From a phage, in NCBI GenBank assembly GCA_026110335.1, contig GCA_026110335.1_3055.1: 64,000 bases of DNA; one strand, written 5' to 3'. The notes under the pieces were generated by a model. The model did no database searches. It was not told where the DNA came from and saw only the letters and a program-made list of their open reading frames with translations. Numbering within the stretch: the first letter of the stretch is position 1; each line of letters starts with the position of its first letter. Below, in pieces: positions 696-60,393 of the stretch. A program made the translations under genes and the position numbers.

Positions 696-1917
<1,222 letters not shown>

Positions 1918-1921
<4 letters not shown>

Positions 1922-2148
1922 TTATTTTTCTCAACTAATGATTGAATATAATCATGCAGGTCTTTAGATGCTTTACCCCACTTATTTTGATATTCATTTT
2001 TAAGATTAGCCCGAGATTGAGCTAATAAAACATCATTAGTTGGAGGCAAAGATTCTAATCGTTGAATCTGGCGTCCATAAATCATTGCAGCCATCTCAGA
2101 TTCATAAATCAATCCTTTGAGATGTTCAAATTGATGCCATGAAATCAT
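1918..2148 (-). CDS. hypothetical protein (76 aa)
   Basis: ORF track; overlapping start/stop with neighbours. Confidence 0.45.
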
Positions 2149-2444
2149 TTACATTTATCCTCTTTTAGCTCTTGACGATAATAACATATCATAGTTTTTT
2201 GGTCATGTACATATCGTTTTACATCATTAAGCCAAATACGAAATTCCTGGGAATCTTCAAATGGCATACCGACCCAAGCTTTACCATCAATGACTTTAAC
2301 TTGCCAAGATAGTTTAGCTTCATCATATGACTTTATTTGCACAGGCCAATTAGGATGAACTGTTTCTTTCTTTACTTCTAGAGGCTTTGTCGAACAACCA
2401 ACTAGAAGACCAATAGATAATATTACTGCCGATAGTTTAATCAT
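2145..2444 (-). CDS. putative lipoprotein (99 aa)
   Basis: N-terminal signal with lipobox-like LLVGC (MIKLSAVILSIGLLVGCSTKP). Confidence 0.5.
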   Translation of the reverse strand: MIKLSAVILSIGLLVGCSTKPLEVKKETVHPNWPVQIKSYDEAKLSWQVKVIDGKAWVGMPFEDSQEFRIWLNDVKRYVHDQKTMICYYRQELKEDKCK

Positions 2445-2794
2445 TTAGAAAGGTCCTGGATGTCTTCTGCGAACTTGTTGAAGGAGTTGTTGATTTGTTT
2501 TTCAACCAATCCTGGCTTATGAGCCACCACATCCGCCTTCTTTGCATCTTTGCACAGTTTTTCATTTTCACGCTCAATAGCAGCAATTGCCTCACGATTT
2601 TTATTATTCATCGCATCAATATAATTATACTGAATTCGCAAATTATCTAATGCTAAAGCGTTTTCATTGGCCGTTTTTGTAATTTCAGTAACCGATGTTT
2701 CTAATCTTTCTACCTTATTTTTTAAAATAATAGATGTTCCGCCAAATGCTATTACAAGTAATAGCAATCCAGCTGTAAAATTACTTACATGCAT
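2441..2794 (-). CDS. hypothetical membrane-anchored protein (117 aa)
   Basis: Hydrophobic N-terminal segment (FTAGLLLLVIAFGGTSIIL) followed by charged, coiled-coil-like region. Confidence 0.5.
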   Translation of the reverse strand: MHVSNFTAGLLLLVIAFGGTSIILKNKVERLETSVTEITKTANENALALDNLRIQYNYIDAMNNKNREAIAAIERENEKLCKDAKKADVVAHKPGLVEKQINNSFNKFAEDIQDLSK

Positions 2795-3288
2795 AAAGTT
2801 TTAATAACCTCTACAATATCGTCTTGAGAAAGACCGTTAATTAAAATATGATGTTCAGCTGGAGATTTAGAAATTTTAAAGCATGCCTCAACATCTTCTG
2901 CCATATCTGATGCGCTACGATTTGGATTACTAATTCCAAGACGATGCTTTTCTGTCAAAGGATTAACAATGATGTAGCATTTACAGTTATTAATATGAAC
3001 ATTAGGTTGAGTCTGATTAATGAATACTTCACAATCATATTTCGCAAGCTGATTTTCTAAAAAGACTTTCATCTCCTCAACTGCATCAGGAAGCATATCA
3101 CGGGCTTGCTCAAGACGACGATTTCGATATTCTTTGATGGTCGTTTTCCGCTTAACTTGCTTAGCTAAATCTTTCTTAAGATCGGTGATATATCCAACTC
3201 GACGATTTCCTTTAAATACAGAAATCCCATCTGTAGTATCACCATATGCTTCAACGACCATTTCAGTAGTAATAAGCTGTAAATCCAT
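2785..3288 (-). CDS. alc: Alc, inhibitor of host transcription on cytosine-containing DNA
   Basis: 167 aa from second ATG; position between rnlA and pseT as in T4; sequence matches my recollection of T4 Alc. Confidence 0.8.
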   Translation of the reverse strand: MDLQLITTEMVVEAYGDTTDGISVFKGNRRVGYITDLKKDLAKQVKRKTTIKEYRNRRLEQARDMLPDAVEEMKVFLENQLAKYDCEVFINQTQPNVHINNCKCYIIVNPLTEKHRLGISNPNRSASDMAEDVEACFKISKSPAEHHILINGLSQDDIVEVIKTLCM

Positions 3289-3319
3289 CATAAAGTCCTC
3301 ATGTTATGTCAGTAAGACT

Positions 3320-3349
3320 ACTGTAACACAACACGAGGGACTTGTAAAC
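3320..3349 (-). promoter_or_regulatory. candidate T4-type early promoter upstream of alc (weak -10)
   Basis: GTTTAC (rc of gtaaac at 3344-3349), 18-nt spacer, TACAGT-like -10. Confidence 0.3.
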
Positions 3350-3352
3350 AGC

Positions 3353-4944
<1,592 letters not shown>

Positions 4945-4971
4945 AATAAAATGGGCCTTGCGGCCCACTCC

Positions 4972-5474
4972 TTAAAAGTATTTTTTAAAACTCATCATAA
5001 CTTTATCATCAACATCATTATCAATCTGTGCAACAAGATAAGATGACAGTTCTACTTCTTGCGGCGCGGATTGAACATTATCAGAATTAAGATATTCACG
5101 AATCCAAGGATATGGATGTTTAACCGGAGCATCGGTAATTGGGCATGGAAGACCGCACTGTTTCATACGAGATACAGTTAAGTAATCAATAAAGCTCCAC
5201 ATGCTATTTGTATTTAATCCAGGAACATCGCCATCTTTAAATAAATGAACTGCCCAATCTTTTTCTTGACGGTTAACTTCCATGAAAATATCAACTGCTT
5301 CTTGTTCACACTCTTGAGCAATTTTAACCCATTCATCACCATCAGTACCGGATTGAAGCTGACGAATAATATATTGAGTGCCTTTAAGGTGAAGCTGCTC
5401 ATCACGTGCAATGAACTTCATAATCTTGGCATTACCTTCCATGATTTCCATGTTCTTATGGAAGTTAAAGGTAC
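4972..5474 (-). CDS. nrdB: ribonucleotide reductase small subunit, exon 2
   Basis: Encodes ...TFNFHKNMEIMEGNAKIMKFIARDEQLH... to C-terminus; aligns to recalled class Ia R2 (E. coli NrdB FACSFAFAERELMEGNAKI); junction inferred. Confidence 0.85.
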
Positions 5475-6565
5475 CGTTATGTTCGATTGAGCTCGCTAAT
5501 TCTCAACCCGTTCTCTTATGAACTGCTACATATTACTATGCAGACCAGACTATATCACAATCCCAGAGGGATTCTCCCCATTTCGAGTCGCTTGACCCTA
5601 CGTCCGAAGACTAGTCGTTGAACCTTGCTTTGCAATTGTCGCCGTGCCATCGTTTATATGTTGATGGTGATAAATCTTTCTTATCACAATATGGACAATT
5701 CAATTGAATTCTATTTGGATTTAATTTACATCTGTCATTATGTTTTAGATAAAATCCAGGACCTTTACCAATGTGACCGCAGAAATCACATGTGATTTCT
5801 TTTTGTGCAGGATGGGTCCCGTTCTTAACCATTTCTAATGTTTTTGCTGATGTTCTTTTCTTATGGTCTTCTGATAAGAAATGATGTGAACCGTCATTTA
5901 CCCGTTTTGATTGAGTTTCTGACTGCATTTTACCACCGCAAAATACATGAGTACCTTCTTTTATAGCTGCAATATTGCGTTCTTTAACTTTTGCAATATG
6001 CTCAGCTTGTTGAAAATTATGTATACCTAATGCAACTCTATTTAAATTAGATTTACGCTGCATTTCACCATCTAAAAGATGAAATGTACCATTTTCTATC
6101 TTAGATTTAATAGAGGCAATATTTTTAGCTCGTACTTCAGGGATGTTAAAAACCTGGATTTCTCTAGATTTTGCGGCTTTAGAAGCTAATTCAGAAATTT
6201 CTTCAGGAGAATATTTCATTCTAAGCTTTATAGCATGACAAGCCTGGTAATCTTTTTGAGCTAAATGTATATCATAATGTTCCTGTATAGAAAGGCACAT
6301 CAAATTATCTAAATCATTATTTTCACGGTTACCGTCTTTATGATGGATTTCGTATGTTCTTCCATCAGAATCTTTAGGTATAGGTCCGTTAGCATCTATC
6401 CAAATTTTTCTATAGTTCAATTGTGCATCCTCTTAAAAGTATAATCATATTTATATTATACTAATTAAAGGTGCAAGCAAAACCTTGGCTGCTAGTTTTC
6501 CTATAAAGGACTTTCCAGCAATTAAAGGAGTTTTCGATAAACGTTACCGTTTAAAGGCGCATTTT
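5475..6565 (-). mobile_element. group I self-splicing intron in nrdB carrying a homing endonuclease ORF
   Basis: Interrupts conserved R2 motif FYVSFA|C; 5' exon ends in U, intron ends in G; about 1091 nt; boundaries inferred from protein continuity. Confidence 0.75.
5611..6420 (-). CDS. HNH homing endonuclease, I-TevIII-like, apparently full length (269 aa)
   Basis: Intron-embedded ORF with HNH-type motif (EIHHKDGNRENNDLDNLMCLSIQEHYDIH) and C-terminal Cys/His-rich region. Confidence 0.75.
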   Translation of the reverse strand: MNYRKIWIDANGPIPKDSDGRTYEIHHKDGNRENNDLDNLMCLSIQEHYDIHLAQKDYQACHAIKLRMKYSPEEISELASKAAKSREIQVFNIPEVRAKNIASIKSKIENGTFHLLDGEMQRKSNLNRVALGIHNFQQAEHIAKVKERNIAAIKEGTHVFCGGKMQSETQSKRVNDGSHHFLSEDHKKRTSAKTLEMVKNGTHPAQKEITCDFCGHIGKGPGFYLKHNDRCKLNPNRIQLNCPYCDKKDLSPSTYKRWHGDNCKARFND

Positions 6566-7202
6566 ACGCAAAAGATACATAAAAACGAATAGCTTCCAAT
6601 GCGTTGATTACATGCAGGCAGAGGTAAAGAGAACGCATTAATTCATATTTGGCAGTTTTAACACCTTCACTGAACTCATGGTATTCTTCTAAAGCATTTT
6701 GGTATTTACGTGTTTTCTCAATAACGTCATCATAATAACGTCCAATGGATTCAGCACGTTTCATAATAGCTTCATCTAATACAATCTCATCAAATACCTT
6801 TGACGGATCAGTATAAAGATTTCGCATGATATGAGTATATGAACGGCTGTGAATAGTTTCACTAAAAGTCCATGTAGCAACCCATGTATCAAGACTTGGG
6901 TCTGAAATTAATGACATAAGTACAGCAGACGGTGCACGTCCCTGAATGCTATCTAGAAGTGATTGATACTTCAAGTTATTAGTAAAAATATCTTGCTGAT
7001 ATTGAGGAAGCTTGTTAAATTGTGCAGAATCCATCATTAAGTTTACTTCTTCAGGACGCCAGAAAAATGATAATTGCTTTTCGGTTAAATCTTCAAAAAC
7101 TTTATGACGTTGAATATCATAACGCGCAATACCAAGACCTGAACCAAAAAACATAGGTTCTTTTAAAACATCAACTGGATTTGTATTAAAAACTGTGCTC
7201 AT
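6566..7202 (-). CDS. nrdB: ribonucleotide reductase small subunit, exon 1
   Basis: MSTVFNTNPVDVL... through ...EAIRFYVSFA; ORF then reads into intron to a stop. Confidence 0.85.
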
Positions 7203-7253
7203 AAATTTTCCACTTAGTTAATAGTTGGTGACTCGTCCATGAGTCAAATTATA

Positions 7254-9518
7254 TCATAATTTACAGGATGAACAATCGTCGGCTTTTGGAGTTTCTATTT
7301 CATAATCATCAGTACCAGAACCATCGCGGGTATTATGATAATAGAAATTTTTAATGCCATAATACCATCCGTATAGCATGTCATCAATCATTATTGACAT
7401 TGGAACCTTTCCTTTTGGAAAAATCTGCGGGTCATAATATGTATTCGCTGAAGCTGATTGACATACCCATTTCAGCATAATAGCTACCTGCGTAAGATAA
7501 GGTTTATTACCTTTCTTAGCTAATTTCCATGTATAATCATAGAGGTCTATGTTATGTTCAATATTGGGCACGACTTGATTAAATGAACCCTCTTTTGATT
7601 CTTTAACAGAGACTGGTCCACGTGGAGGCTCGATACCGTTTGTACTGTTAGAAACTTGGGAAGATGACTCACATGGCATAAGTGCTGATAATGTGCTATT
7701 ACGGATGCCAAAGAGCTTAAGGTCTTCCCGCAGCGACGACCAGTCACAAACGTATTTTGGAGCTGCGATTTGGTCAATCTTTTTATTGTACCAGTCGATA
7801 GGTAATTCGCCTCGAGACCAACGAGTGTCTGAATAATATTCGCAAGGTCCTTTTTCTTTGGCGAGCTTAATGGATGCTTTAATGAGTCCATACTGTAATC
7901 TCTCAAATAGTTCATGTGTTAAATCGTTAGCATCTTCATAAGAAGCAAAGTTACTTGCCAGCCAAGCTGCATAGTTAGTAACACCTACACCGAGGTTACG
8001 ACGCTTTTTAGCTTTTTCTGCTTCAGGAACTGGATATCCTTGGTAGTCCAAAAGATTATCAAGAGCACGAACTTGGACTTCTGCCAATTCATTAATTTTA
8101 TCTTGGTCTTGCCAATCGAAGTTATCCAACACAAATGCGCTAAGGGTACACAATCCAATTTCAGCATCAGGGCTATTCACATCATTTGTTGGAATAGCAA
8201 TTTCACAGCACAAGTTACTCTGACGAATAGGTGCCTTTTCACGAATAAACGGAGTGTAGTTATTCGTATTATCAATGAACTGCACATAAATCCTTGCTGT
8301 TCCTGAGCGTTCAGTCATGAGCAATTCAAATAGTTCACGGGCTTTAATACGCTTTTTACGAATATTAGGGTCTTTTTCTGCTGCTTCGTATAATTCACGG
8401 AAACGGTCTTGGTCTTTAAAATAAGAATAATACAGCTCTCCACCCATTTCGTGTGGACTGAACAAAGTAATGTAATCGTTCTTTCCGAATCGTTCCATCA
8501 TCAAATCATTCAGTTGAACACCATAATCCATATGACGGATACGGTTTTCTTCTACGCCTTTGTTATTTTTCAAAACGAGAAGATTTTCAACTTCCAAATG
8601 CCAAATAGGATAATAAGCAGTAGCAGCGCCGCCACGAATTCCACCCTGTGAACATGATTTAACAGCAGTCTGAAAATGTTTCCAAAAAGGAATAACACCA
8701 GTATGGCGTACTTCACCCATGCCAATCTTAGAACCTTCAGCACGAATCATACCAACGTTAATACCAATTCCAGCGCGTTTGGAGATATATTCAACAATTG
8801 AAGCGGAAGCCTTATTGATAGACTTTAATGAATCACCTGCCTCAATAACAACGCATGAACTAAACTGTCGAGTCGGAGTACGACAACCAGCCATAATAGG
8901 AGTTGGCAGTGAAATCTGTCGAGTAGATACTGCTTCATAAAAACGAATAACATGTTTTAATCTATCAACAGGTTCATCTTGATGCAATGCCATTCCAATA
9001 GTCATAAATGCAAACTGCGGAGTTTCATAAATTTGACCAGTGGTTTTATCTTTAACTAGATATTTTTCTTTTAATTGCATCGCCCCGGAATAAGTAAATT
9101 CCATATCCCGTTCGTGCTTAATTTTTGATTCTAAAAATGTAATTTCTTCTGCTGAATATTTTGACAATAATTCAGGGTCATATTTACCTTCATTTACACA
9201 GTAAGAAATATGGTCAATAAATGAACGTGGTTCATACTGCCCATAAACATGCTTACGAAGAGCGAACATTAAACAACGTGCAGCTACATATTGATAATCA
9301 GGCTCTTCAACCGAAATAGAATTCGCAGCGGCCTTAATGACAATAGTCTGAATATCATCAGTGGTCATTCCATCACGGAGATATGATTTAATATTTTCAT
9401 ATAATTCATAAGGATCTACAGATGTTCCTTCAGCTGCCCAAGATAAAACTTTAATAATTTTTTGCGGGTCAAAGCTCTGAGAAACACCACTACTTTTGAT
9501 AACATTAATTAATTGCAT
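7254..9518 (-). CDS. nrdA: ribonucleotide reductase large subunit
   Basis: 754 aa; N-terminal ATP-cone region and class Ia R1 catalytic core; matches recalled T4 NrdA; adjacent to nrdB. Confidence 0.93.
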   Translation of the reverse strand: MQLINVIKSSGVSQSFDPQKIIKVLSWAAEGTSVDPYELYENIKSYLRDGMTTDDIQTIVIKAAANSISVEEPDYQYVAARCLMFALRKHVYGQYEPRSFIDHISYCVNEGKYDPELLSKYSAEEITFLESKIKHERDMEFTYSGAMQLKEKYLVKDKTTGQIYETPQFAFMTIGMALHQDEPVDRLKHVIRFYEAVSTRQISLPTPIMAGCRTPTRQFSSCVVIEAGDSLKSINKASASIVEYISKRAGIGINVGMIRAEGSKIGMGEVRHTGVIPFWKHFQTAVKSCSQGGIRGGAATAYYPIWHLEVENLLVLKNNKGVEENRIRHMDYGVQLNDLMMERFGKNDYITLFSPHEMGGELYYSYFKDQDRFRELYEAAEKDPNIRKKRIKARELFELLMTERSGTARIYVQFIDNTNNYTPFIREKAPIRQSNLCCEIAIPTNDVNSPDAEIGLCTLSAFVLDNFDWQDQDKINELAEVQVRALDNLLDYQGYPVPEAEKAKKRRNLGVGVTNYAAWLASNFASYEDANDLTHELFERLQYGLIKASIKLAKEKGPCEYYSDTRWSRGELPIDWYNKKIDQIAAPKYVCDWSSLREDLKLFGIRNSTLSALMPCESSSQVSNSTNGIEPPRGPVSVKESKEGSFNQVVPNIEHNIDLYDYTWKLAKKGNKPYLTQVAIMLKWVCQSASANTYYDPQIFPKGKVPMSIMIDDMLYGWYYGIKNFYYHNTRDGSGTDDYEIETPKADDCSSCKL

Positions 9519-10072: not shown

Positions 10073-10933
10073 TTACACCGCCATTTTTCCTTTCAAGACA
10101 CCGTGGGACTGATAATCTTTGAGAACGAAATCTTTAGGCCTGAGTTTAAGAACATATTCCAATTGTTCTTTAGTAGAAAGATAACGGAATTTATAAGGCA
10201 ATCCGCCTATTACCAGTTCACAAAGCTCTTTAGGTTCACGACGCAAAATTTCTTTACATTGTTCGACATGATTCATATAGATATGAGTATTACCACCGGA
10301 AAATATCAAATCTCCTGGAATAAGATTACACATCTTAGCTACAATATGAACGAACGCAGCATATGATGCAATGTTGAATGGCAAGCCCAAGAACACGTCA
10401 ACACTTCTTTGATACCACTGCAAATCCAAATAGCCATTACGCACATTAAACTGATAGAACATATGACAAGGCGGTAATGACATATATTTAAGTTCAGCTG
10501 GATTCCATGCAGAAACAATTTGACGTCTATCATTTGGTAGTTTTTTAATACGATCAACAACTTCTATAATTTGGTCTACACCGCCAAAATCACGCCATTG
10601 TTTTCCATAAATTGGACCAAGTTCACCACTATGATATCCTAAATCTTTTGCTTGATTTTCGTAATTTTCATCCCAGACTGTTTTGCCTTGAATTAATGAA
10701 TTGTGTTGAATTAATCGTAAATCATTGACATTTGTGCTTCCTGATAAAAACCATATTAGCTCAGCAATGCAAGCTTTCCAGGCGAGCTTCTTAGTTGTTA
10801 CCGCAGGAAAACCTTTAGTTAAATCCCAGCGTAATTTAGTACCGAACAAAGCAATTGTTCCTGTGCCTGTTCGGTCATCGGTTTCATAGCCATTTTCAAA
10901 AATGTCTTTAATTAAATCTTGGTATTGTTTCAT
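10073..10933 (-). CDS. td: thymidylate synthase, uninterrupted (no intron)
   Basis: 286 aa continuous ORF with ThyA active-site region (LPPCH) and C-terminal MAV; T4 td is split by an intron, this one is not. Confidence 0.9.
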
Positions 10934-10978: not shown

Positions 10979-12175
<1,197 letters not shown>

Positions 12176-21903: not shown

Positions 21904-22560
21904 ATGGCTGATTTAAAAGTAGGTTCAACAACTGGAGGCTCTGTCATTTGGCATCAAGGAAATTTTCCATTGAATCCAGCCGGTGACGATGTACTCTATA
22001 AATCATTTAAAATATATTCAGAATACAATAAACCGCAAGCTGCTGATAACGATTTTGTTTCTAAAGCTAATGGTGGTACTTATTTAAATAAAGTAATTTT
22101 TAATAAAGGAATGACTGTTCCTGGCGCAGGGTCAGGCGATAACGGTATTTTTGCTGGTCCTGGTGATAGTGCCACGTATGATACTACAAATATGGATATT
22201 GTTTCGTGGTATGGTATTGGTTTTAAATCATCACAAGGAACAGCAGGTAGAACTGTAGTAATTAACACACGAAATGGAGATATTAGCTCAAAGGGCGTAA
22301 TTGAAGCATCACAAATCCGTGTAACTTCGTTATCACCAGTAAATAATTATGACCTTACGCGGAAAGATTATGTTGATGGAGCAATAAATATTGTTACAGC
22401 AAACGCAAACTCTAGGGTATTACGCTCTGGAGATACTATGACAGGAAATTTAACTGCGCCAAACCTTTTTTCACAGAATCCTGCATCTCAACCCTCGCAT
22501 GTTCCACGATTTGATCAAATTGTTATTAAGGATTCTGTTCAAGATTTCGGCTATTATTAA
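21904..22560 (+). CDS. 36: long tail fibre distal connector gp36
   Basis: 218 aa; position and size. Confidence 0.85.
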   Translation: MADLKVGSTTGGSVIWHQGNFPLNPAGDDVLYKSFKIYSEYNKPQAADNDFVSKANGGTYLNKVIFNKGMTVPGAGSGDNGIFAGPGDSATYDTTNMDIVSWYGIGFKSSQGTAGRTVVINTRNGDISSKGVIEASQIRVTSLSPVNNYDLTRKDYVDGAINIVTANANSRVLRSGDTMTGNLTAPNLFSQNPASQPSHVPRFDQIVIKDSVQDFGYY

Positions 22561-22568
22561 GAGGACTT

Positions 22569-25500
22569 ATGGCTACTTTAAAACAAATACAATTTAAAAG
22601 AAGCAAAACTGCAGGAGCACGTCCTGCCGCTTCAGTATTAGCCGAAGGTGAATTGGCTATAAACTTAAAAGACCGCGTACTTTTTACTAAAGATGACCAA
22701 GGAAATATTATTGATCTGGGTTTTGCTAAAGGCGGTAGTATTGACGGGAATGTTATTCATACAGGTAATTATAACCAAACCGGCGATTATACTTTAAATG
22801 GCACCTTCACTCAGACAGGTAATTTTAATTTAACTGGTATTGCTCGAGTAACTCGCGATATTATTGCCGCTGGGCAGATTATGACTGAGGGCGGAGAACT
22901 TATTACAAAAAGCTCAGGTACAGCGCATGTTCGTTTTTTCGATAACAATAGCCGCGAACGTGGAATCATTTATACCCCGGCCAATGATGGTTTAACTACA
23001 CAAGTACTTAATATCAGGGTTCAAGACTACGCCGCTGGTGATGAAAGCACCTATGCATTTTCGGGCAGTGGCCTATTTACTTCACCTGAAGTATCAGCAT
23101 GGAAATCTATTTCGTCTCCACAAATTCTGACCAACAAAGTCATTACAAATGGGAAGAAGACCGGCGATTATGACATTTATTCATTATCAAATAACACTCC
23201 AATGGCAGAAGGCGAAACGGCTATTAACCACCTCCGTGTTATGCGAAATGCTGTAGGAGCAGGTATTTTCCACGAAGTTAATGTTAATGACGGAATAACC
23301 TGGTATTCCGGAGATGGCTTAGACACTTATCTTTGGTCGTTTAACTGGGCCGGTGGATTGAAAGCAGGCCATTCTATTTCTATAGGTCTTCCGGGTGGCT
23401 CTAAAGGATATTCTGAATTAGGGACTGCCTCAATTGTTCTTGGGGATAATGATACCGGATTTAAATGGCATCAGGACGGATATTATTTCAGCGTTAATAA
23501 TGGAACAAAAACGTTTTTATTTAGTCCCAGCGAAACAACTAGCCTAAGAAAATTTGTAGCTGGATATTCTACTAACGGAACCGATTTAACTACTCCTCCA
23601 ACTGAAAACTATGCTTTGGCCACTGTTGTTACTTACCATGATAATAACGCGTTTGGAGACGGTCAGACTCTTTTAGGATATTATCAAGGTGGTAATTATC
23701 ATCATTATTTCCGCGGTAAGGGTACTACAAACATTAATACTCACGGTGGTTTGTTAGTTACTCCTGGTAATATTGACGTTATTGGTGGTTCTGTTAATAT
23801 TGATGGTCGTAATAATTCTTCTACGCTGTTGTTTAGAGGTAACACGACCGGAGCTAGTTCAGTTGATAATATGACAATTTCCGTTTGGGGCAATACGTTT
23901 ACTAATCCTAGTGTAGGTAATCGTAAAAACGTCATGGAAATTTCTGACGCAACTAGTTGGATGAGCTATATTCAAAGACTTACAACAGGTGAAGTAGAAA
24001 TGAACGTTAACGGTTCATTTGAATCATCTGGTGTTACTGCTGGAAATAGAGGAGTTCACACAACAGGCGAAATTTCATCTGGAGCAGTGAATGCGCTTCG
24101 TATTTGGAATGCAGATTATGGAGCTATTTTTAGACGTTCAGAAGGTAGTCTTCATATTATTCCAACTGCTTACGGTGAAGGTAAACATGGTGATATCGGT
24201 CCACTTCGCCCGTTTAGTATGGCTTTAGATACCGGTAAAGTTACTATTCCAGATTTACAATCAAGTTACAATACGTTTGCTGCTAACGGTTATATTAAAT
24301 TTGCTGGTCATGGAGCGGGTGCCGGCGGTTATGCTATTCAATATGTTCAAGCAGCTCCTATTTTCCAGGAAATCGATGATGATGCTGTAAGCAAATATTA
24401 TCCTATTGTTAAACAGAAGTTTTTAAACGGTAAAGCTGTCTGGTCTTTAGGTACTGAAATTAATTCGGGTACATTCGTTATTCATCATCTGAAAGAAGAT
24501 GGTTCACAAGGCCATACGTCTCGTTTTAATCAAGACGGTACTGTTAACTTCCCAGATAACGTTGCTGTCGGCGGCGGTGAAGCTACTATTGCTCGTAATG
24601 GTAACATCTGGTCTGATATCTGGAAAACGTTTACTTCAGCTGGTGACGTAACTAATATTCGCGATGCTATTGCTACTCGCGTTGCCAAAGAAGGCGACAC
24701 GATGACAGGCCGTTTAACTCTTAATGCCAACTCGGATGCTATTATTATTAACAGTGCTGCAACCGAATCTTGTTATGTGAAAGGACAAAAAGCGGGCGTT
24801 AATAACTGGTATGTTGGTAATGGTGGGGCTGATAATGCCATATCGTTTTATAGTTTCCGAAATAATTCAGGCATAATTGTTAATAATGGTGGCGATATTG
24901 CTTTAAACCCAGAAGGGTCAGCCACTTTTAATTTTAATAGGGACCGACTTTTTATTAATGGCTCTGTCTGGACCAGTCACCAGGCCGGCGATTGGGGAAA
25001 TCAATGGCGCCAGGAAGCTCCGATATTTGTGGATTTTGGCTACGTCGGTAATGATAGTTATTATCCAATTATCAAAGGAAAATCTGTTATTACGAATGAA
25101 GGATACGTATCTGGTGTTGATTTCGGTATGCGCCGTATCACTAATACTTGGGCACAAGGTATTATCCGTGTAGGTAATCAGGAAAACGGTTCCAGCCCAC
25201 AAGCTATCTATGAATTTCACCACAATGGAGTTATGTATGTTCCTGACATGGTTAAAACTGGAGCAAGATTATCAGCTGGCGGTGGTGACCCGGTGTGGAC
25301 TGGACCATGTCTTGTTATTGGTGATAATGATACCGGATTAGTTCATGGTGGTGACGGTCGTATTAACATGGTTGCAAATGGAATGCATATTGCTTCATGG
25401 TCGTCCGCTTACCATCTCCATGAAGGTCTTTGGGATACCACTGGTGCTTTGTGGACTGAACATGGAAGAGCTATTATTTCTTTTGGTCATTTAATCCAAC

Positions 25501-38287: not shown

Positions 38288-38317
38288 ATTATACCACATC
38301 CTTGTGGTAAAGTAAAC
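38288..38317 (-). promoter_or_regulatory. T4-type early promoter for rIIA.1-rIIA
   Basis: GTTTAC-N18-TATAAT on minus strand. Confidence 0.6.
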
Positions 38318-40134
38318 TACTGGCTCATCCATTCTTTACGAAGGTCAGCGTTATCTCCCATGAGCATTTCAAAAAGCTCTTTCCAATTCTCAGGAAGTTT
38401 AACAACATCATATACTGGATTTTGAATCATCTCACGATATTCAGATTTTTCCAAAGAGCCAAGTCCCTTAATATAACGGATGCTATGTTTAGGTAGAGCA
38501 TCTTTGGCACTCTCATATTCAGCGACTGTATAAAACCATTCTTGTTTTTTACCGACCTGAGCGATGATTACAGGAGTTTTGACAAAGCGAATTCGTCCTT
38601 GCTCAAACAATTCTGGCCAATTACTAAAAAATCCGAGCAGAGAAGGATAAATGCTTCCTAGACCATCGTGGTCAGCATCAGTCATAATAGCGATATTATG
38701 ATAATTCAAGTTTTCAGCTTTTTCACCAAGAACTAATCCAGTGATTGCGCAAATATCAAATAGTTCTTTGTTTTTAAGCATATCTGCATAAGACATACCC
38801 CAGCTGTTGAGAACTTTACCACGCAATGGATAACCACCGTGAAGTTCTTTATCACGAACATCAATAAGATAGCCGATAGCAGAATCACCCTCAGTCAAGA
38901 AAAGAGTAGTATCAGCATCTTTACCACAAAGATTCGCTTTAATATGTTTATGAACCTTAGCTTTAGAAGCCTTTTTAGCTGCTTTAGTTTCTGCTGCTTT
39001 TTCTGCCGCCAATTTACGAGCTAGTGCAGCTTCAATAATCGGCATCAAAATCGCTTCATTATTTAGAATAGCGCGTGAAATCTTTTTAGCATCAAGTTGA
39101 ATATGACTACGGATTTCACCAAATGGAGAAGTCAAACGCTCTTTAGTTTGAGAATCAAATCGCATGTTTTTCATATCACGAACAAACATAACGATAGTCA
39201 AACATTCTTTAACACGCGCTTTAGTTACATCAATTTTGAACTTGCGTTTGATTTGTGGAATAAGGTCTTCACAAATATCATCCATAACACAGTCAATGTG
39301 ATGGCCACCATTCTTAGTGTGAATGTTATTGACGTACGTCAACTGACGAAAACCATCCGGTGAACGACCAACCGCAATAGAACAATTTTCTTGTTCTTGA
39401 ACGATAGCATGTTCATCATACTGTCGTGCATATTTCTTAAAATTGCCCTGAACCTTTTTACCATTAAAGGTAAATTGAATATCAGGATAAACAACAGCAA
39501 GTGTCTGGAGACGATCTAGTGTAATGTCAAGATAAACTTGGGACAGCTCATTAGTTTCAAATGACATAAAATCAGGAATGAAAGTAACACGAGTTCCTTT
39601 CCATTTTCCAGGAATATCTTCCCATGATTTATTTTCCATGCCATTTGAACAACGAACTACAATATTATTTTGACCATCACCAGTTTCACCAACAAACATC
39701 ACAGAAAAAATGTTTGTCAAACTAGAACCAACACCATTCATACCGCCAGTGACGCGCTCTTTATCATCACCGAAGTTACCACCTGCTTTTGGAATAGTCC
39801 ATGCAGCAACAGGGCCAGGAATTTCTTCACCAGTAGGTGTTTTAACCATCGCTTGTGGAATACCACGACCGTTATCTTCAACTGTTACTTGATTGTTTTT
39901 AATAGTAACATTAATTTTATTTGCGAATTTAAACTTAGTACGAATACCTTCATCTACTGAGTTATCGATAATTTCATCAATAAGCTTAACAAGACCAGGT
40001 ACATACTGAACACTTTCCCATTTACCAAACAGAAAGCGCTCATGCATTTCATTAGCAGAAGAGCCAATATACATGCCGCTACGCTTTTTGATATGTTCAA
40101 TATCGCTCAGAATTTTAATTTCATTCTTAATCAT
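38317..40134 (-). CDS. 39: DNA topoisomerase II large (ATPase) subunit, fused 39+60 form
   Basis: 605 aa single ORF spanning GHKL ATPase and TOPRIM regions; no split or bypass element. Confidence 0.9.
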   Translation of the reverse strand: MIKNEIKILSDIEHIKKRSGMYIGSSANEMHERFLFGKWESVQYVPGLVKLIDEIIDNSVDEGIRTKFKFANKINVTIKNNQVTVEDNGRGIPQAMVKTPTGEEIPGPVAAWTIPKAGGNFGDDKERVTGGMNGVGSSLTNIFSVMFVGETGDGQNNIVVRCSNGMENKSWEDIPGKWKGTRVTFIPDFMSFETNELSQVYLDITLDRLQTLAVVYPDIQFTFNGKKVQGNFKKYARQYDEHAIVQEQENCSIAVGRSPDGFRQLTYVNNIHTKNGGHHIDCVMDDICEDLIPQIKRKFKIDVTKARVKECLTIVMFVRDMKNMRFDSQTKERLTSPFGEIRSHIQLDAKKISRAILNNEAILMPIIEAALARKLAAEKAAETKAAKKASKAKVHKHIKANLCGKDADTTLFLTEGDSAIGYLIDVRDKELHGGYPLRGKVLNSWGMSYADMLKNKELFDICAITGLVLGEKAENLNYHNIAIMTDADHDGLGSIYPSLLGFFSNWPELFEQGRIRFVKTPVIIAQVGKKQEWFYTVAEYESAKDALPKHSIRYIKGLGSLEKSEYREMIQNPVYDVVKLPENWKELFEMLMGDNADLRKEWMSQ

Positions 40135-40202
40135 CACTTATCCTCGTTTGGTTTCGGGAATATTATACTCCAATAATCATAAAGCTAAAGGCCCGAAGGC
40201 CT

Positions 40203-50261: not shown

Positions 50262-50498
50262 TTAACCACCTATTGCTGTAGGCGTAAACATTGCAGCATT
50301 CTTAGTTTTCCAAGTTGCTGCATCGGAAACTACATCAGAATAAGCTGCTTTTTCTGACGGAAAGATTTGATAATGAGAATCTGCAATACGATGCTCGTTA
50401 GAATAGATTTCAAATGGAACAGAAACTTCCATACCTTTAACTTCTTTGCCTTCACCCGCTGGATGAGTAAAGGTCTTGATGTTAACGAAACCACCCAT
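50262..50498 (-). CDS. soc: small outer capsid protein
   Basis: 78 aa; VNIKTF...HYQIFPSEKAAYS resembles recalled T4 Soc; own late promoter. Confidence 0.75.
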   Translation of the reverse strand: MGGFVNIKTFTHPAGEGKEVKGMEVSVPFEIYSNEHRIADSHYQIFPSEKAAYSDVVSDAATWKTKNAAMFTPTAIGG

Positions 50499-50540: not shown

Positions 50541-51059
50541 TCAATAACCTCGGTCTTGACGAGCGAAGTTTTCAGCATTTTTCAGATAATAAAGTTTAAA
50601 GATTTCTTCAGCTGACATTCCAAGAGCAATGAATTTATTCATGAAAAAGTGAAATTGGTCAATTAGTTCAAATTTAATTTCAAGCTGATCTTCAGGAGAT
50701 AAATCTTGAATTTTCTTGGATTGCATTTCAGAATAACGTTTCTTCCAAGGTTTCCATACAGCAGAAGCTTCTTTTTCGCCATTACTCATACCGCCAAGAG
50801 AAGTATATAACTCGCGAGTTTCGTCTGCGATATAATCGTCTTGGTTTCGCAACCAAGCAAGAACTTCTCCTGCAGTTTCAAGTGAATCGGGATGACGATT
50901 TGTTTCTGGTTTATCATTAGCCAAACGAATCTGTAAATGCCGCTGCATATCAAGCATAACCTGCAGTGGGTCAATATTGTGCATAATATTCTCAGCATAT
51001 GCACGATTTGCTTTATCAACACCTTCGATCAAATGAGCACATTCATTAAAGTGAGCCAT
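50541..51059 (-). CDS. 56: dCTP pyrophosphatase (dCTPase/dUTPase) gp56
   Basis: 172 aa from MAHFNECAH; MazG-like; position between soc and dam. Confidence 0.8.
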   Translation of the reverse strand: MAHFNECAHLIEGVDKANRAYAENIMHNIDPLQVMLDMQRHLQIRLANDKPETNRHPDSLETAGEVLAWLRNQDDYIADETRELYTSLGGMSNGEKEASAVWKPWKKRYSEMQSKKIQDLSPEDQLEIKFELIDQFHFFMNKFIALGMSAEEIFKLYYLKNAENFARQDRGY

Positions 51060-51119
51060 TATTTTTCCTTTCAATTCATCAATAAGTTAAATAATTATAT
51101 CATTTGAATATGTAAGCAA

Positions 51120-54353: not shown

Positions 54354-54383
54354 ATAGTATCTCAATTTCTAACAAAAGTAAAC
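54354..54383 (-). promoter_or_regulatory. T4-type early promoter
   Basis: GTTTAC-N18-TACTAT. Confidence 0.55.
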
Positions 54384-54637
54384 TATTTTATTTCCTCAAG
54401 TTCGTTAATCAATAAAAGTTCTCTGACGCTAAAAACAAAGAAAAATGTGTTCCCATCAACCAGAGCATGACCGCTAATAGAACACCCTCTGCGGAATTTA
54501 GAAACTTCACAATCTAGAACTGTAAAGGGTTTTAATCCTATGACTTTAGCTGTGCGTCTATTCAGTTCACAACCACTTGCGAATTTTTCCAAATCTTCTT
54601 CTGATTTAAACTGATATTCTCTATTAACTAGCATCAT
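54383..54637 (-). CDS. hypothetical protein (84 aa), 61.4-like
   Basis: ORF track. Confidence 0.45.
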   Translation of the reverse strand: MMLVNREYQFKSEEDLEKFASGCELNRRTAKVIGLKPFTVLDCEVSKFRRGCSISGHALVDGNTFFFVFSVRELLLINELEEIK

Positions 54638-56622: not shown

Positions 56623-56985
56623 TTAAAAGAATTTAAATTTTTTCTTTGACCTTTTATTAAATGCATCTTGCAGTTGCATTGTAATACATTTTTCTACATG
56701 AGGAGCTAACTCAGCTTTTCTTTCTTGGTCAAGAACAGCAAAGTCCATTACGACTTTTCCATCAACCCAATCTAATTTTGTCACATACACAATGTGTGTA
56801 GAACCATCTTCTAGTTTAATGACAATCTCCTGGATAACATTTTCCATGGCAGATTTAATTATCTTAAGAGACTCATTAAAAAGACGTTCTTTTCTTTCTT
56901 CTTCCCCCTCCGAAGAGGGGGATTCATCGATAATTTCTAGATCTAAGTCTAAATCATCTTTATTCATTAAATTCTTCCATATCAC
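56623..56985 (-). CDS. 40: gp40 head vertex assembly chaperone
   Basis: 120 aa; position between uvsX and 41. Confidence 0.7.
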   Translation of the reverse strand: MIWKNLMNKDDLDLDLEIIDESPSSEGEEERKERLFNESLKIIKSAMENVIQEIVIKLEDGSTHIVYVTKLDWVDGKVVMDFAVLDQERKAELAPHVEKCITMQLQDAFNKRSKKKFKFF

Positions 56986-58135
56986 TTAACTGCTCGAGGT
57001 CAGTTTCTAAATCAGCTGCTGATTTACTTTTACTTTCTGGAGATTTAAATTTTTCAACCTTTGAGTTAATCAATTCATCAACTTCAGCTTCAACAATTTC
57101 ATTACTATCAATAGCACCTAACTGATAAGCACGTTTAATAGCATCTCGGAATGGCTGATGTTTAAATAAAGGACCCCAGAATGTAGTGCAGTTGGTATCT
57201 TTTGCACGCCAAGATTTTTCTTCGCGAATCATCTCGCCGGTTTCTTCGTCAAGAAATTCACGAGCATACCAACCATTTTTAGGTTTTACCACAAATCCTA
57301 ATTCTAGAGCCATATCTAACAACCCAGAATAAGGATCGATACCACCGTCAAATTTAACATCAATAAAGAATTTACTTTTTTCTTTAACGGTACGAGATTT
57401 TTCTACATTTAGAACAAATTGATACCCCTGAAGATCAGAACCATCTTTAATCTGACGTTTACCGATAATGAATACGGTATCAGCAGAATACATCGGTCCA
57501 GTACCACCTCCCATAACTGTTTTACTAAACATTTCTTGTGTTTCGTATGTATGGTTAATAGCAATACATGGAATATTTTTAGTACTAAAATAGGGAGTTA
57601 CGATACGAAATAAGCTTTTCATTGTTTTAGCTCTAGTCATATCACTAACAACTTTTTCATTTAAAGCATCTTCAGTTTCTTTCTTAGAAGCTAAGTTACC
57701 AAGTGAATCGATAAAAACGACTACCTTTTCGCCGCGTTCAATTGCATCCAATTGATTAACCATGTCAATACGTAATTGCTCAAGTGATTGAACCGGAGTA
57801 TGAATTACTCGTTCTGGATCGACTCCCATAGACCGCAAATAAGCAGGAGTAATACCAAATTCACTATCATAAAACAAGCATACTGCATCAGGATATTGAC
57901 GCATGTAAGATGACACCATTGTTAATCCAAAGTTTGATTTAAATGATTTTGATGGACCTGCCAAAATTAACAGACCAGATTGCATACCACCAGTAATTTC
58001 ACCAGAAAGTGCAATATTCATCATAGGAATTTTTGTTCGAACTACATCTTTTTCATTAAAGAATTTAGATGCTGTTAATTCTGCTGTCAATTTAGAAGTA
58101 GAAGCTTTAATCAAACGAGATTTTAAATCAGACAT
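56960..58135 (-). CDS. uvsX: UvsX recombinase (RecA-like)
   Basis: 391 aa; RecA fold with Walker A GPSKSFKS; matches recalled T4 UvsX. Confidence 0.93.
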   Translation of the reverse strand: MSDLKSRLIKASTSKLTAELTASKFFNEKDVVRTKIPMMNIALSGEITGGMQSGLLILAGPSKSFKSNFGLTMVSSYMRQYPDAVCLFYDSEFGITPAYLRSMGVDPERVIHTPVQSLEQLRIDMVNQLDAIERGEKVVVFIDSLGNLASKKETEDALNEKVVSDMTRAKTMKSLFRIVTPYFSTKNIPCIAINHTYETQEMFSKTVMGGGTGPMYSADTVFIIGKRQIKDGSDLQGYQFVLNVEKSRTVKEKSKFFIDVKFDGGIDPYSGLLDMALELGFVVKPKNGWYAREFLDEETGEMIREEKSWRAKDTNCTTFWGPLFKHQPFRDAIKRAYQLGAIDSNEIVEAEVDELINSKVEKFKSPESKSKSAADLETDLEQLSDMEEFNE

Positions 58136-58143
58136 ATAATACC

Positions 58144-58821
58144 TTATAGTAGTGTTCTTGTTCCACGAAATACTTCGAGCATTCTTGCATAAGATTTATT
58201 TGGAAATCCAGCTTCAATTGCTAATTTTTTAAGCTTAATAGCACCGGGTTTTCCAGAGTTTTCCCATATTTCTTTAATCTTTTCAATGTTATCCCACATT
58301 ATTGGGTCACGTTTATGTGATGGTTTATTTCTATTATAACCATATGGATTATTAAGCAAAGCTTCTTTTCGTTTTGCTTTAGTTTCTTCTGACTGCTTTT
58401 TGCCTAGCTGGGCTTTCCGGCAAACATCACTAAATCCAAGATGTTTTGGTTTTCCTTTTTGGGCTTTTGAAATTTTTTCTTTGGTTTCTGATGAAACTCT
58501 ATAACCAATTCTTCTACCACCCTCTCCACCAATTTTTAAATTATAAGTCATAGGATCATTTACCACATCTATTGTTACTAATTCTCTTTCAGCATCACGG
58601 GCTGATTTAAAATCTTTATAAAACCCAAGAATGCTTAAATTAAAATTTTTCTTACCATACTTTTTCTTGGCTTGTGCTAATAAAGTTCCTGATCCCATAT
58701 AACCATCATTTAAATCATCGGTTGAATGAGTTCCATAGTAAATTTTATTATTAACTAAATTAGTTATAACATAAGTATAATTATATTTCTTTTCTTTATG
58801 TCTTTTCATGTCATTAATCAA
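58144..58821 (-). CDS. GIY-YIG homing endonuclease, SegA-like
   Basis: 225 aa; N-terminal GIY-YIG module (YNYTYVITNLVNNKIYYGTHS...R...E...N) and basic C-terminal DNA-binding region; free-standing between uvsX and the glycosyltransferase-locus gene. Confidence 0.7.
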   Translation of the reverse strand: MINDMKRHKEKKYNYTYVITNLVNNKIYYGTHSTDDLNDGYMGSGTLLAQAKKKYGKKNFNLSILGFYKDFKSARDAERELVTIDVVNDPMTYNLKIGGEGGRRIGYRVSSETKEKISKAQKGKPKHLGFSDVCRKAQLGKKQSEETKAKRKEALLNNPYGYNRNKPSHKRDPIMWDNIEKIKEIWENSGKPGAIKLKKLAIEAGFPNKSYARMLEVFRGTRTLL

Positions 58822-59662
58822 CTGCTATTGGATGAATAGCATTAAACTTATGAAATGCTTCTGATTTTTCTTTACGCGAAACACACATGCGAAGAACCTT
58901 TAGTGGTTCATCTTCTTCACCCAACGATTTTCGTTTTTCAATATTTGAAGTTTTCCAACGAGCTTGCTCTGGAAACTCTCTATTGATTTGCTCAAGCGCT
59001 CTATTATGTTTAGAATTACTACGAATTGAACTACACCCACCGGGAGCGTGTGATTTTCCAGATACAACTAGATATTTGAACAAGGCCAAATGCGGATAAC
59101 CTTGATTAATTAAATTGAGAAATGCATACATATCTTCGCATAAATCAATTTTTCCATACCCAATTTGTTCTGTCGTAAGTTTTCCGAGGTCATACCATGT
59201 ATTCGTGAATCCATATGAGTTTTCACGATAATTACCCCAAGATGAAGTAATTTTAAAAATTGGTAGACGAGCATGACCGTGATAATACCCGCAATCCATG
59301 GCATCTTCAACGTATTGAATTAATTCATAGAACTGTTCACGAGTTAATTGATTAATTTTATCTACGCGCCGTTTATCGTCTCTCTTTCGTATTGAACTCA
59401 TACGAATAGTAGTATCATCATCGATCATCCAAATTCGTTGACCTGCATACATATCAGTAATTGCTTTACGAGTACCGGCAATTCCATTAACATCATCAGG
59501 AATAGTTACAATTTTAGCTCTAGACCCATAAGCATCATAATAAGCTTTTTCTTCGTGTTCACGCACTACAATATGGGGTTCATAATCAGTCGGAAACATA
59601 TTAAGGGCAGAAACTGCCCCTACACGCTGATAACTTGGAATTACGAATTGAATCATTTCCAC
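58814..59662 (-). CDS. putative DNA-modifying glycosyltransferase (GT-A-like, DDD motif) at the beta-gt locus
   Basis: 282 aa; IWMIDDDTTI DxD-like motif; occupies the uvsX-42 slot where T4 encodes beta-glucosyltransferase but does not resemble recalled T4 beta-gt. Confidence 0.45.
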   Translation of the reverse strand: MEMIQFVIPSYQRVGAVSALNMFPTDYEPHIVVREHEEKAYYDAYGSRAKIVTIPDDVNGIAGTRKAITDMYAGQRIWMIDDDTTIRMSSIRKRDDKRRVDKINQLTREQFYELIQYVEDAMDCGYYHGHARLPIFKITSSWGNYRENSYGFTNTWYDLGKLTTEQIGYGKIDLCEDMYAFLNLINQGYPHLALFKYLVVSGKSHAPGGCSSIRSNSKHNRALEQINREFPEQARWKTSNIEKRKSLGEEDEPLKVLRMCVSRKEKSEAFHKFNAIHPIAVD

Positions 59663-60393
59663 TCACCGTTATAATCTTTTTTCACAATATGAGTTTCGCC
59701 AGTATTCCACCAATGATCAACCAAGTAAAAATGACGAGAATATACATGAAGACTTCCAACATTCCATATAATAGAACCTGCTTTATACTGACGAGTTGAA
59801 TCGCCTGCATTCAAATCAGATACTAATTTATCTAATACGTATTTTTGCCATGCATAATCATTACGGAATCCGAAGACCACGTCATTTGAGCGCATGCTTA
59901 CTACTGCATTGACTTTCTTATCACGAATCAGGTACTGTACTGTATTAGTACACATGAAATCTGACATGCCATCTTTATTATAGTCAAATTGCATGGATGG
60001 ACGAGTATAAATCATGATACCACGTCGAGAATCAGGATTTTGACCAAGTTCAGCTAAACACATATCATACTGGGCATAGTTATCTTCTGACCAAATAGCC
60101 CAGCCATAATTCGAGTTAATTTCGCCTTTAGAAGATGCTACCTGCTGCCAAATCTTTGGTGTTTCACCTGGAATATCTTTAACAAACAGACTTTGAGACT
60201 TGTACCATTCAAGTTCACGCTGAATGTATTCATCATTAAGAGCGCCAAAAATAAACGGTTCATCTGCTACAAATGATGCGCCAATAATTTCAATAGTTTT
60301 AACACCGGTTTTATCAACCACGAAATCTTTTTCTTTTAATGCAAGCCCCAAACGAAGACGGATTTCTTCAACTGTCATAGAGTCACTAATCAT
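59653..60393 (-). CDS. 42: dCMP hydroxymethylase gp42
   Basis: 246 aa; thymidylate-synthase-like fold; position next to imm. Confidence 0.9.
   Translation of the reverse strand: MISDSMTVEEIRLRLGLALKEKDFVVDKTGVKTIEIIGASFVADEPFIFGALNDEYIQRELEWYKSQSLFVKDIPGETPKIWQQVASSKGEINSNYGWAIWSEDNYAQYDMCLAELGQNPDSRRGIMIYTRPSMQFDYNKDGMSDFMCTNTVQYLIRDKKVNAVVSMRSNDVVFGFRNDYAWQKYVLDKLVSDLNAGDSTRQYKAGSIIWNVGSLHVYSRHFYLVDHWWNTGETHIVKKDYNGEWK

Follow-up and report, generated by a model that had tools for sequence, protein, structure and literature searches.

T4 segA beside a T2/T6-type glucosyltransferase gene in a Tequatrovirus genome, and a uvsX tract that has probably moved with it

Introduction

The stretch of phage DNA analysed here, referred to as the window (64,000 nt, contig GCA_026110335.1_3055.1), contains an intact open reading frame between uvsX and a glucosyltransferase gene. 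From the letters alone, an earlier note had described this as a free-standing GIY-YIG homing endonuclease gene, probably mobile and able to drive localised marker exclusion against related phages. This raises the question of which endonuclease is encoded, and of whether the genomes of relatives carry the traces that its movement would leave. The gene at this position in T4 is segA; its product, also called F-TevI, is reportedly the subject of papers by Sharma, Ellis and Hinton in 1992 and by Sharma and Hinton in 1994.

In T4, segA is a free-standing, active GIY-YIG endonuclease gene inserted between uvsX and b-gt, and its target gene is uvsX (Edgell, Gibb & Belfort, 2010; PMC2988022). SegA, an endonuclease that depends on Mg and is specific for its site, breaks both strands of uvsX and leaves a 3′ extension of 2 nt (PMC2988022, citing Sharma & Hinton, 1994), and promoters of the downstream gene are embedded in segA (PMC2988022). 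Another arrangement of free-standing endonucleases is found in fractured genes, in which a split intein is accompanied by a free-standing GIY-YIG or Vsr-like endonuclease; uvsX is absent from the list of host genes (Dassa et al., 2009; PMC2677866).

Results

Identity of the open reading frame

From cd.3 to gene 43, by way of rIIB/rIIA, the window is colinear with T4 over its full length. In the open reading frame listing of the window, the frame at 58144..58821 on the minus strand is intact and reads for 225 aa from a TTG at 58821; four codons further in, at 58809, an ATG gives a 221-aa product. The segA coding sequence is 666 bp in T4 (AF158101 23570-24235) and has the same length in all segA+ relatives. 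It is therefore likely that translation starts at ATG 58809 rather than at TTG 58821, and 58144-58809 is the better gene model. The free-standing Seg-like gene first described is thus real and lies on the minus strand in the uvsX/glycosyltransferase interval, although its 225-aa start gives way to the shorter product. The gene and its neighbours are as follows.

56960..58135, minus strand: uvsX, 391 aa, protein 100% identical to T4 UvsX (Pfam T4_UVSX_C and RecA)
58144..58809, minus strand: segA coding sequence, free-standing GIY-YIG homing endonuclease SegA, 221 aa, stop codon TAA at 58146-58144 (open reading frame, Pfam, T4 identity)
58814..59662, minus strand: ba-gt, T2/T6-type beta-glucosyl-HMC-alpha-glucosyltransferase, 282 aa (Pfam TAGT, annotation of relatives)
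59653-60393, minus strand: gene 42 (open reading frame listing, neighbour of ba-gt)

In a tblastn comparison with the phage collection, all 221 residues are identical (100%) in 16 records, T4 strains among them, and the SegA of AF158101 is 99.5% identical. At the DNA level, identity to T4 is 99.6-99.7% from 58100 to 58836 (blastn). The annotated order in T4 is uvsX (22386-23561), segA (23570-24235), b-gt (24400-25455) and 42, and segA of the window has the same position and orientation, between uvsX and the glucosyltransferase slot. Judged by identity and location, the gene is T4 segA at T4's own locus, a known gene and not a new or additional Seg. The comparison with SegA to SegG that had been suggested accordingly bears out membership of the Seg family, the match being SegA itself (100% aa), so that this is a known Seg in its T4 position.

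Domains and catalytic residues

The Pfam GIY-YIG domain (PF01541) matches SegA residues 14-94 (E 3.4e-9, 37.3 bits, profile positions 2-78 of 78), above its cut-off of 22.6 bits, and NUMOD3 matches residues 106-127 (28.6 bits, cut-off 20.4 bits). The C-terminal 122 residues include 21 lysines and 9 arginines (30/122 basic). Both the GIY-YIG N-terminus, with its match above the curated cut-off, and the lysine-rich C-terminal region that had been read from the translation are therefore present.

The catalytic residues of I-TevI are Y6, Y17, G19, R27, E75, and N90. In an alignment of SegA with SegB to SegG, I-TevI, and the homing endonuclease of Shewanella phage Thanatos-1, residues Y13, Y24, G26, E74, and N90 of SegA are invariant or nearly so, and these correspond to the GIY tyrosine, the YIG Tyr-x-Gly, and the catalytic glutamate and asparagine. 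At these five positions, the loss of catalytic residues that had been named as grounds for rejecting the assignment is not seen. The stretch around Arg27 of I-TevI faces a gap in all of the SegA to SegE proteins and an equivalent arginine is not assignable by sequence; the SegA call is not weakened by this, given that T4 SegA, which has the same sequence, is documented as active (PMC2988022). SegA has in common with I-TevI the GIY-YIG catalytic domain (Tyr, Tyr-x-Gly, Glu, and Asn), 2-nt 3′ overhangs, and a C-terminal DNA-binding region of modular type; it differs in being only 20% identical to I-TevI and in not being intron-encoded. A PDB sequence search with SegA returned chance matches only, giving no structural anchor beyond Pfam.

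An intron- or intein-encoded endonuclease was considered and rejected. The segA gene lies between two complete open reading frames, uvsX of the window is uninterrupted, and a scan of the window with Rfam gave no matches, introns included.

The upstream junction and the signals within segA

Three short features adjoin or overlap segA.

58810..58836, minus strand: upstream junction of 27 nt, the last ba-gt codons and stop plus 4 nt (T4 homology extends to 58836)
58333..58358, minus strand: uvsX middle (MotA-type) promoter TGCTTAATAATCCATATGGTTATAAT, within the segA coding region (pattern match; X03099)
58141..58145, minus strand: uvsX Shine-Dalgarno sequence AAGGT, overlapping the segA stop codon (mapped from the ribosome-binding-site annotation of X03099)

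The promoter at 58358-58333, in the 3′ part of segA, is the counterpart of the -35/-10 that the T4 record X03099 marks as a putative middle promoter. The window therefore agrees with T4 in the 221-aa protein, the site directly upstream of uvsX, and the embedded uvsX promoter and Shine-Dalgarno sequence, and also in the T4-type uvsX allele described below. Upstream of segA the two differ. T4 has b-gt and a 164-bp spacer, whereas in the window the ba-gt stop codon is followed by 4 nt and the ATG, with no spacer, and no homology was found between window ba-gt and T4 b-gt. Since ba-gt directly abuts segA in place of the 164-bp spacer, the segA-specific upstream promoter region of T4 is missing from the window.

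The junction reads TTCATCGAATAGCAGTTGATTAATGAC in T4 and TTCATCCAATAGCAGTTGATTAATGAC in the window, and the segA-less phages part from the window right after ...GATTAATG. T4 has no ba-gt and nevertheless keeps 27 nt of the ba-gt 3′ end and stop upstream of segA, with one mismatch. This remnant indicates that the T4 segA block formerly adjoined ba-gt, as it does in the window, and therefore that the b-gt arrangement of T4 is the derived one. The remnant is at 24236-24262 of the T4 locus (L001), and the b-gt-segA spacer also holds a hydrophobic mini-ORF of 24 codons, together with a stretch similar to the spacer that separates ba-gt and uvsX in segA-less phages. Elsewhere in this interval, an additional open reading frame of 642 bp, missing from the window, separates ba-gt from gene 42 in some relatives, among them Manna (L014, 3054-3695) and HY03 (L010, 304-945).

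Translational control by a hairpin over the segA AUG (-13.1 kcal/mol) was rejected, as its z is -1.5 and the 5′ arm is not conserved in T4. A sigma-70 promoter scan showed no enrichment over shuffles.

Distribution among relatives

At 90% amino acid identity or more, SegA is present in 27 records, compared with 535 records that match the surrounding 3.6-kb region (about 5%). Only nine records match the 3.6-kb region in full; the typical relative covers 81% of it and is without exactly the endonuclease gene (about 680 bp). The gene is therefore sporadic and not, as had been raised against mobility, a core gene of all close relatives. The segA/ba-gt arrangement is already present in nine GenBank records, for example ESh36, LH2, Manna, and PD112, in which the gene, where annotated, is called 'homing endonuclease' or 'putative endonuclease'.

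The comparison of the interval between uvsX and gene 42 that had been proposed shows what occupies the segA site in its absence. In the segA-less phages SG1, HP3, and RB14, a 77-bp spacer separates ba-gt and uvsX, and uvsX begins MSIADLK, as against MSDLK in the segA+ type. No tandem duplication of the segA-uvsX region was found in the window or its relatives, each record having it in one place.

The T4-type tract of uvsX

The uvsX gene next to segA consists of two parts that differ in their relation to the common allele of the genus, and the first of these is the putative co-conversion tract.

57494..58135, minus strand: T4-type 5′ tract of uvsX, gene nt 1-642, codons 1-214 (alignments)

Against the common allele, as represented by HP3, RB14, and HY03, uvsX nt 1-642 has 142-160 mismatches (22-25%), while nt 643-1176 (534 nt) has only 7-14. 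In each of the three comparisons, the clustered mismatches end at nt 642 (window 57494). All 37 residue differences between T4-type and common-type UvsX are within the first 214 aa. The 5′ part of uvsX is dimorphic across the records compared: for 57420-58120 of the window, 29 records reach 95% identity or more, about 1,377 others stay at or below 80%, and none falls between. The 29 records with the T4-type tract are all of the segA+ records together with SG1. The much-studied T4 recombinase UvsX is, in this comparison, a minority allele in Tequatrovirus.

The tract and segA together form a block of about 1.3 kb. Among the window, T4, ESh36, LH2, and Manna this block differs by 0-0.3%; the flanks of the same five genomes are more diverged, by 1.3-3.0% in the 3′ part of uvsX, 2.2-5.1% in ba-gt, and 3-11% in gene 42. 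An older copy, 2.5-4% diverged, is present in PD112 and CE1. In several backgrounds the block is thus much younger than its surroundings, which is the pattern expected of repeated gene conversion by homing. The earlier reading of the gene as probably mobile agrees with its sporadic presence and with these population data, which are consistent with a mobile gene that co-converts the markers beside it.

SG1 combines the T4-type tract with a common-type uvsX start and lacks segA, and so shows that the tract can exist without the gene. It is probably a recombinant in which a crossover in the first ~50 nt of uvsX removed segA. The linkage of segA to the diverged tract could also come from the 22% divergence itself, blocking recombination inside the block.

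The probable SegA target region in uvsX

57500..57544, minus strand: putative SegA target region, uvsX codons 198-212, ETQEMFSKTVMGGGT (listed site and intein junction)

Tables of homing endonucleases reportedly give the site of F-TevI/SegA as the 24-mer GAAACACAAGAAATGTTTAGTAAA, then 14 nt, then the cut. In the window this 24-mer has a single occurrence (57521-57544, minus strand), with 0 expected by chance, and encodes UvsX residues 198-205 (ETQEMFSK); its exact match to uvsX strongly supports the listed site. The top-strand cut would presumably be at about 57507/57506, after uvsX nt 629 and 13 nt short of the end of the T4-type tract. The 24-mer, 14 nt upstream of this cut, sits in the segA+ allele, and the common uvsX allele differs at three of its 24 positions and at several more around the putative cut. 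A SegA break near uvsX codon 210, with co-conversion, would fit this arrangement, the cut coordinate itself being putative.

Split inteins in the uvsX genes of relatives

An independent marker of a homing site is found in uvsX itself. About 25 phage records, from several genera, have a split intein and a free-standing GIY-YIG homing endonuclease gene inserted after uvsX nt 633. This position corresponds to G211|T212 of T4 UvsX (window 57503/57502) and is 9 nt from the segA-linked tract boundary. The junction is ...VMTGG|C...HN|TGVMYSADT in Thanatos-1, SEA1, HY03, and TG1, and the blast match of HY03 to the window stops exactly at 57503. The N-half of the intein is 82-87% identical in most records and 57-65% identical in TG1 and two Vibrio phages. 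Fractured uvsX loci are found at the following places, and also in loci L011 and L012.

Thanatos-1 (L006), 2085-4485
SEA1 (L007), 3667-6002
HY03 (L010), 1862-4347

The only full-length relatives of SegA outside the T4-type set in the phage collection are also at uvsX. In Thanatos-1, a homing endonuclease gene (L006, 2995-3648) whose product shows 52% identity with SegA from end to end lies between two open reading frames annotated 'recombination protein'. The first contains UvsX residues 1-210 and continues CVVAGTKIQL...; the second begins MKIKS...GIVTHN and continues TGVMYSADT.... The two halves give sub-threshold but mutually consistent Hint/Intein_splicing matches, with the N-terminal part of the profile in the first and its last 34 positions in the second. 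On this evidence from sequence, Thanatos-1 uvsX is split by an intein between the equivalents of G211 and T212, with a free-standing homing endonuclease gene amid the halves.

In Salmonella phage SEA1, a segA-like pseudogene (L007, ~2950-3660) occupies the T4 position immediately upstream of uvsX; it has two frameshifts and aligns in three pieces at 61% amino acid identity. The uvsX intein of SEA1 holds a different homing endonuclease gene. The pseudogene looks like a decaying SegA whose target is occupied. HY03, itself a Tequatrovirus, has the uvsX intein, with ba-gt again as the upstream neighbour, and the resident endonuclease in HY03, Pm5461, and SEA1 is of a different, SegG-like type. The HY03 uvsX has extra divergence at nt 60-360, which is away from the intein site and not next to the insertion.

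A likeness to fractured genes (Dassa et al., 2009) is therefore seen in the uvsX genes of Thanatos-1, SEA1, HY03, Pm5461, TG1, and other phages, and not in the window, where uvsX is uninterrupted and the related endonuclease is outside the gene. A scan of IMG/VR with an alignment of SegA and the Thanatos endonuclease found generic Seg N-terminal domains only, none of 80 loci having uvsX or a SegA-type C-terminal domain nearby. Likewise, scans of IMG/VR and metagenomes with the C-terminal domain gave one weak match without uvsX and 23 limited to the N-terminal, NUMOD3-containing part of the query. As these scans added none, the association of the SegA lineage with uvsX is one of three lineages, T4-type, SEA1, and Thanatos-1.

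Other mobile elements and small open reading frames of the window

The absence of other T4 seg genes from their usual places holds for both that had been named. For segF, soc (50262-50498) adjoins gene 56 (50541-51074), and for segG, genes 32 and 59 are only 99 bp apart. The endonuclease genes of T4 that are missing from the window include segF, segG, I-TevI, mobE, and mobA. The td gene (10073-10933, minus strand) is without an intron and without I-TevI; mobE and nrdB.1 are missing between nrdB and nrdA (7202-7258); and gene 39 (38317-40137, minus strand) is one 606-aa open reading frame with no gene 60/60.1/mobA insertion.

In the nrdB intron region, a 269-aa HNH open reading frame (5611-6420, minus strand) resembles full-length I-TevIII, of which the T4 copy is truncated. 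This region is about 477 bp longer in the window than in T4, and an Rfam scan at the gathering threshold found no group I intron in the window. Insertions relative to T4 include a 123-aa open reading frame between td and frd (10979-11350, minus strand) and one of 84 aa between sp and 61.4 (54383-54637, minus strand). The primase-helicase gene 41 is intact in the window (475 aa); in the closest relative, Shigella phage ESh36, it is annotated as two pieces around a 999-bp open reading frame (L004, 347-1345), possibly another fractured gene.

Discussion

The open reading frame is T4 segA in a Tequatrovirus genome in which a T2/T6-type ba-gt replaces b-gt, and it is very likely that homing with co-conversion has shaped the region around it. 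In a mixed infection, SegA would cut uvsX of a segA-less relative around codon 210, at a distance of some 630 bp from its own gene. The T4 recombination machinery would mend the break with the segA+ genome as template, and the stretch copied would reach from the break through the whole of segA, transferring uvsX nt 1-642 and segA (about 1.3 kb). The outcome would be intronless homing with co-conversion, equal to localised marker exclusion, the markers of the rival in the interval being lost.

Such a process resembles that of SegF with gene 56 and SegG with gene 32. In each case a free-standing GIY-YIG gene lies beside a conserved replication or recombination gene, cleavage is inside the neighbour at a distance, and the diverged stretch in between is passed on along with the endonuclease gene. 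For SegF and SegG, intronless homing and marker exclusion have reportedly been shown experimentally, in papers by Belle et al. (2002) and Liu et al. (2003). The distance for SegA, estimated at ~630 bp, is larger, and the case for SegA homing is a comparative one. We know of no published cross showing SegA homing in vivo.

The most serious alternative is that segA is no longer mobile and is kept passively for the promoter and ribosome-binding site of uvsX, a gene essential for fitness, the tract being a single ancient import whose flanks have recombined in the ordinary way. The uvsX promoter and Shine-Dalgarno sequence are indeed inside or at the end of segA, and the same argument for retention has been made before (PMC2988022). 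Moreover, a tract diverged by 22-25% would be enough in itself to hold back crossing-over within the block, and the one boundary shared by all segA+ genomes is explicable by a single origin. However, the open reading frame is intact and its product matches, residue for residue, an enzyme of known biochemical activity, the tract boundary falls at a site that other homing elements also use, and a block that differs by 0-0.3% between flanks that differ by 1.3-11%, across backgrounds, points to recent repeated transfer rather than old vertical descent. Passive retention is therefore considered improbable.

Less probable again, and held to be very unlikely, is that SegA acts mainly on its own genome, in recombination-dependent replication or local amplification, and not by homing into relatives. 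SegB drives segmental amplification of neighbouring loci (PMC13096335), the in vitro site of SegA was mapped on the uvsX of T4 itself, and it is the segA+ allele that contains the 24-mer. Against this, the population pattern is one of presence and absence with a co-converted tract, and the search of the window and relatives for a tandem segA-uvsX duplication was negative. That the open reading frame is a different, uncharacterised Seg-like endonuclease with its own target can be dismissed, since although Seg proteins are only 17-46% identical to each other and a reader without tools could not separate them, a match to T4 SegA of this quality in protein and DNA, at the same locus, rules out a new member.

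As a gene call, nothing changes, as segA is already a textbook homing endonuclease gene of T4. What the comparison of genomes adds is, to our knowledge, the first population-level view of the DNA that segA would move, a 1.3-kb block that includes 642 nt of uvsX and ends at a site that split-intein elements also use. The comparison further implies that T4 UvsX, studied for decades, has an N-terminal part (214 aa) that is atypical of most of the genus.

A further proposal, put forward tentatively and at slightly less than even likelihood, is that SegA and the endonucleases of the uvsX split inteins share their uvsX target and are competitors or relatives at a single homing site, T4 SegA cutting within a few nucleotides of the G211|T212 point. 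The SegA lineage occurs both outside the gene, in T4, the window, and the decayed SEA1 copy, and inside an intein, in Thanatos-1. If the proposal is true, this would be a natural case of an endonuclease switching between free-standing and intein niches with its target kept. The N-terminal 214 residues of T4 UvsX would then be a foreign allele, with a 17% protein difference from the usual Tequatrovirus type, that hitch-hiked with segA.
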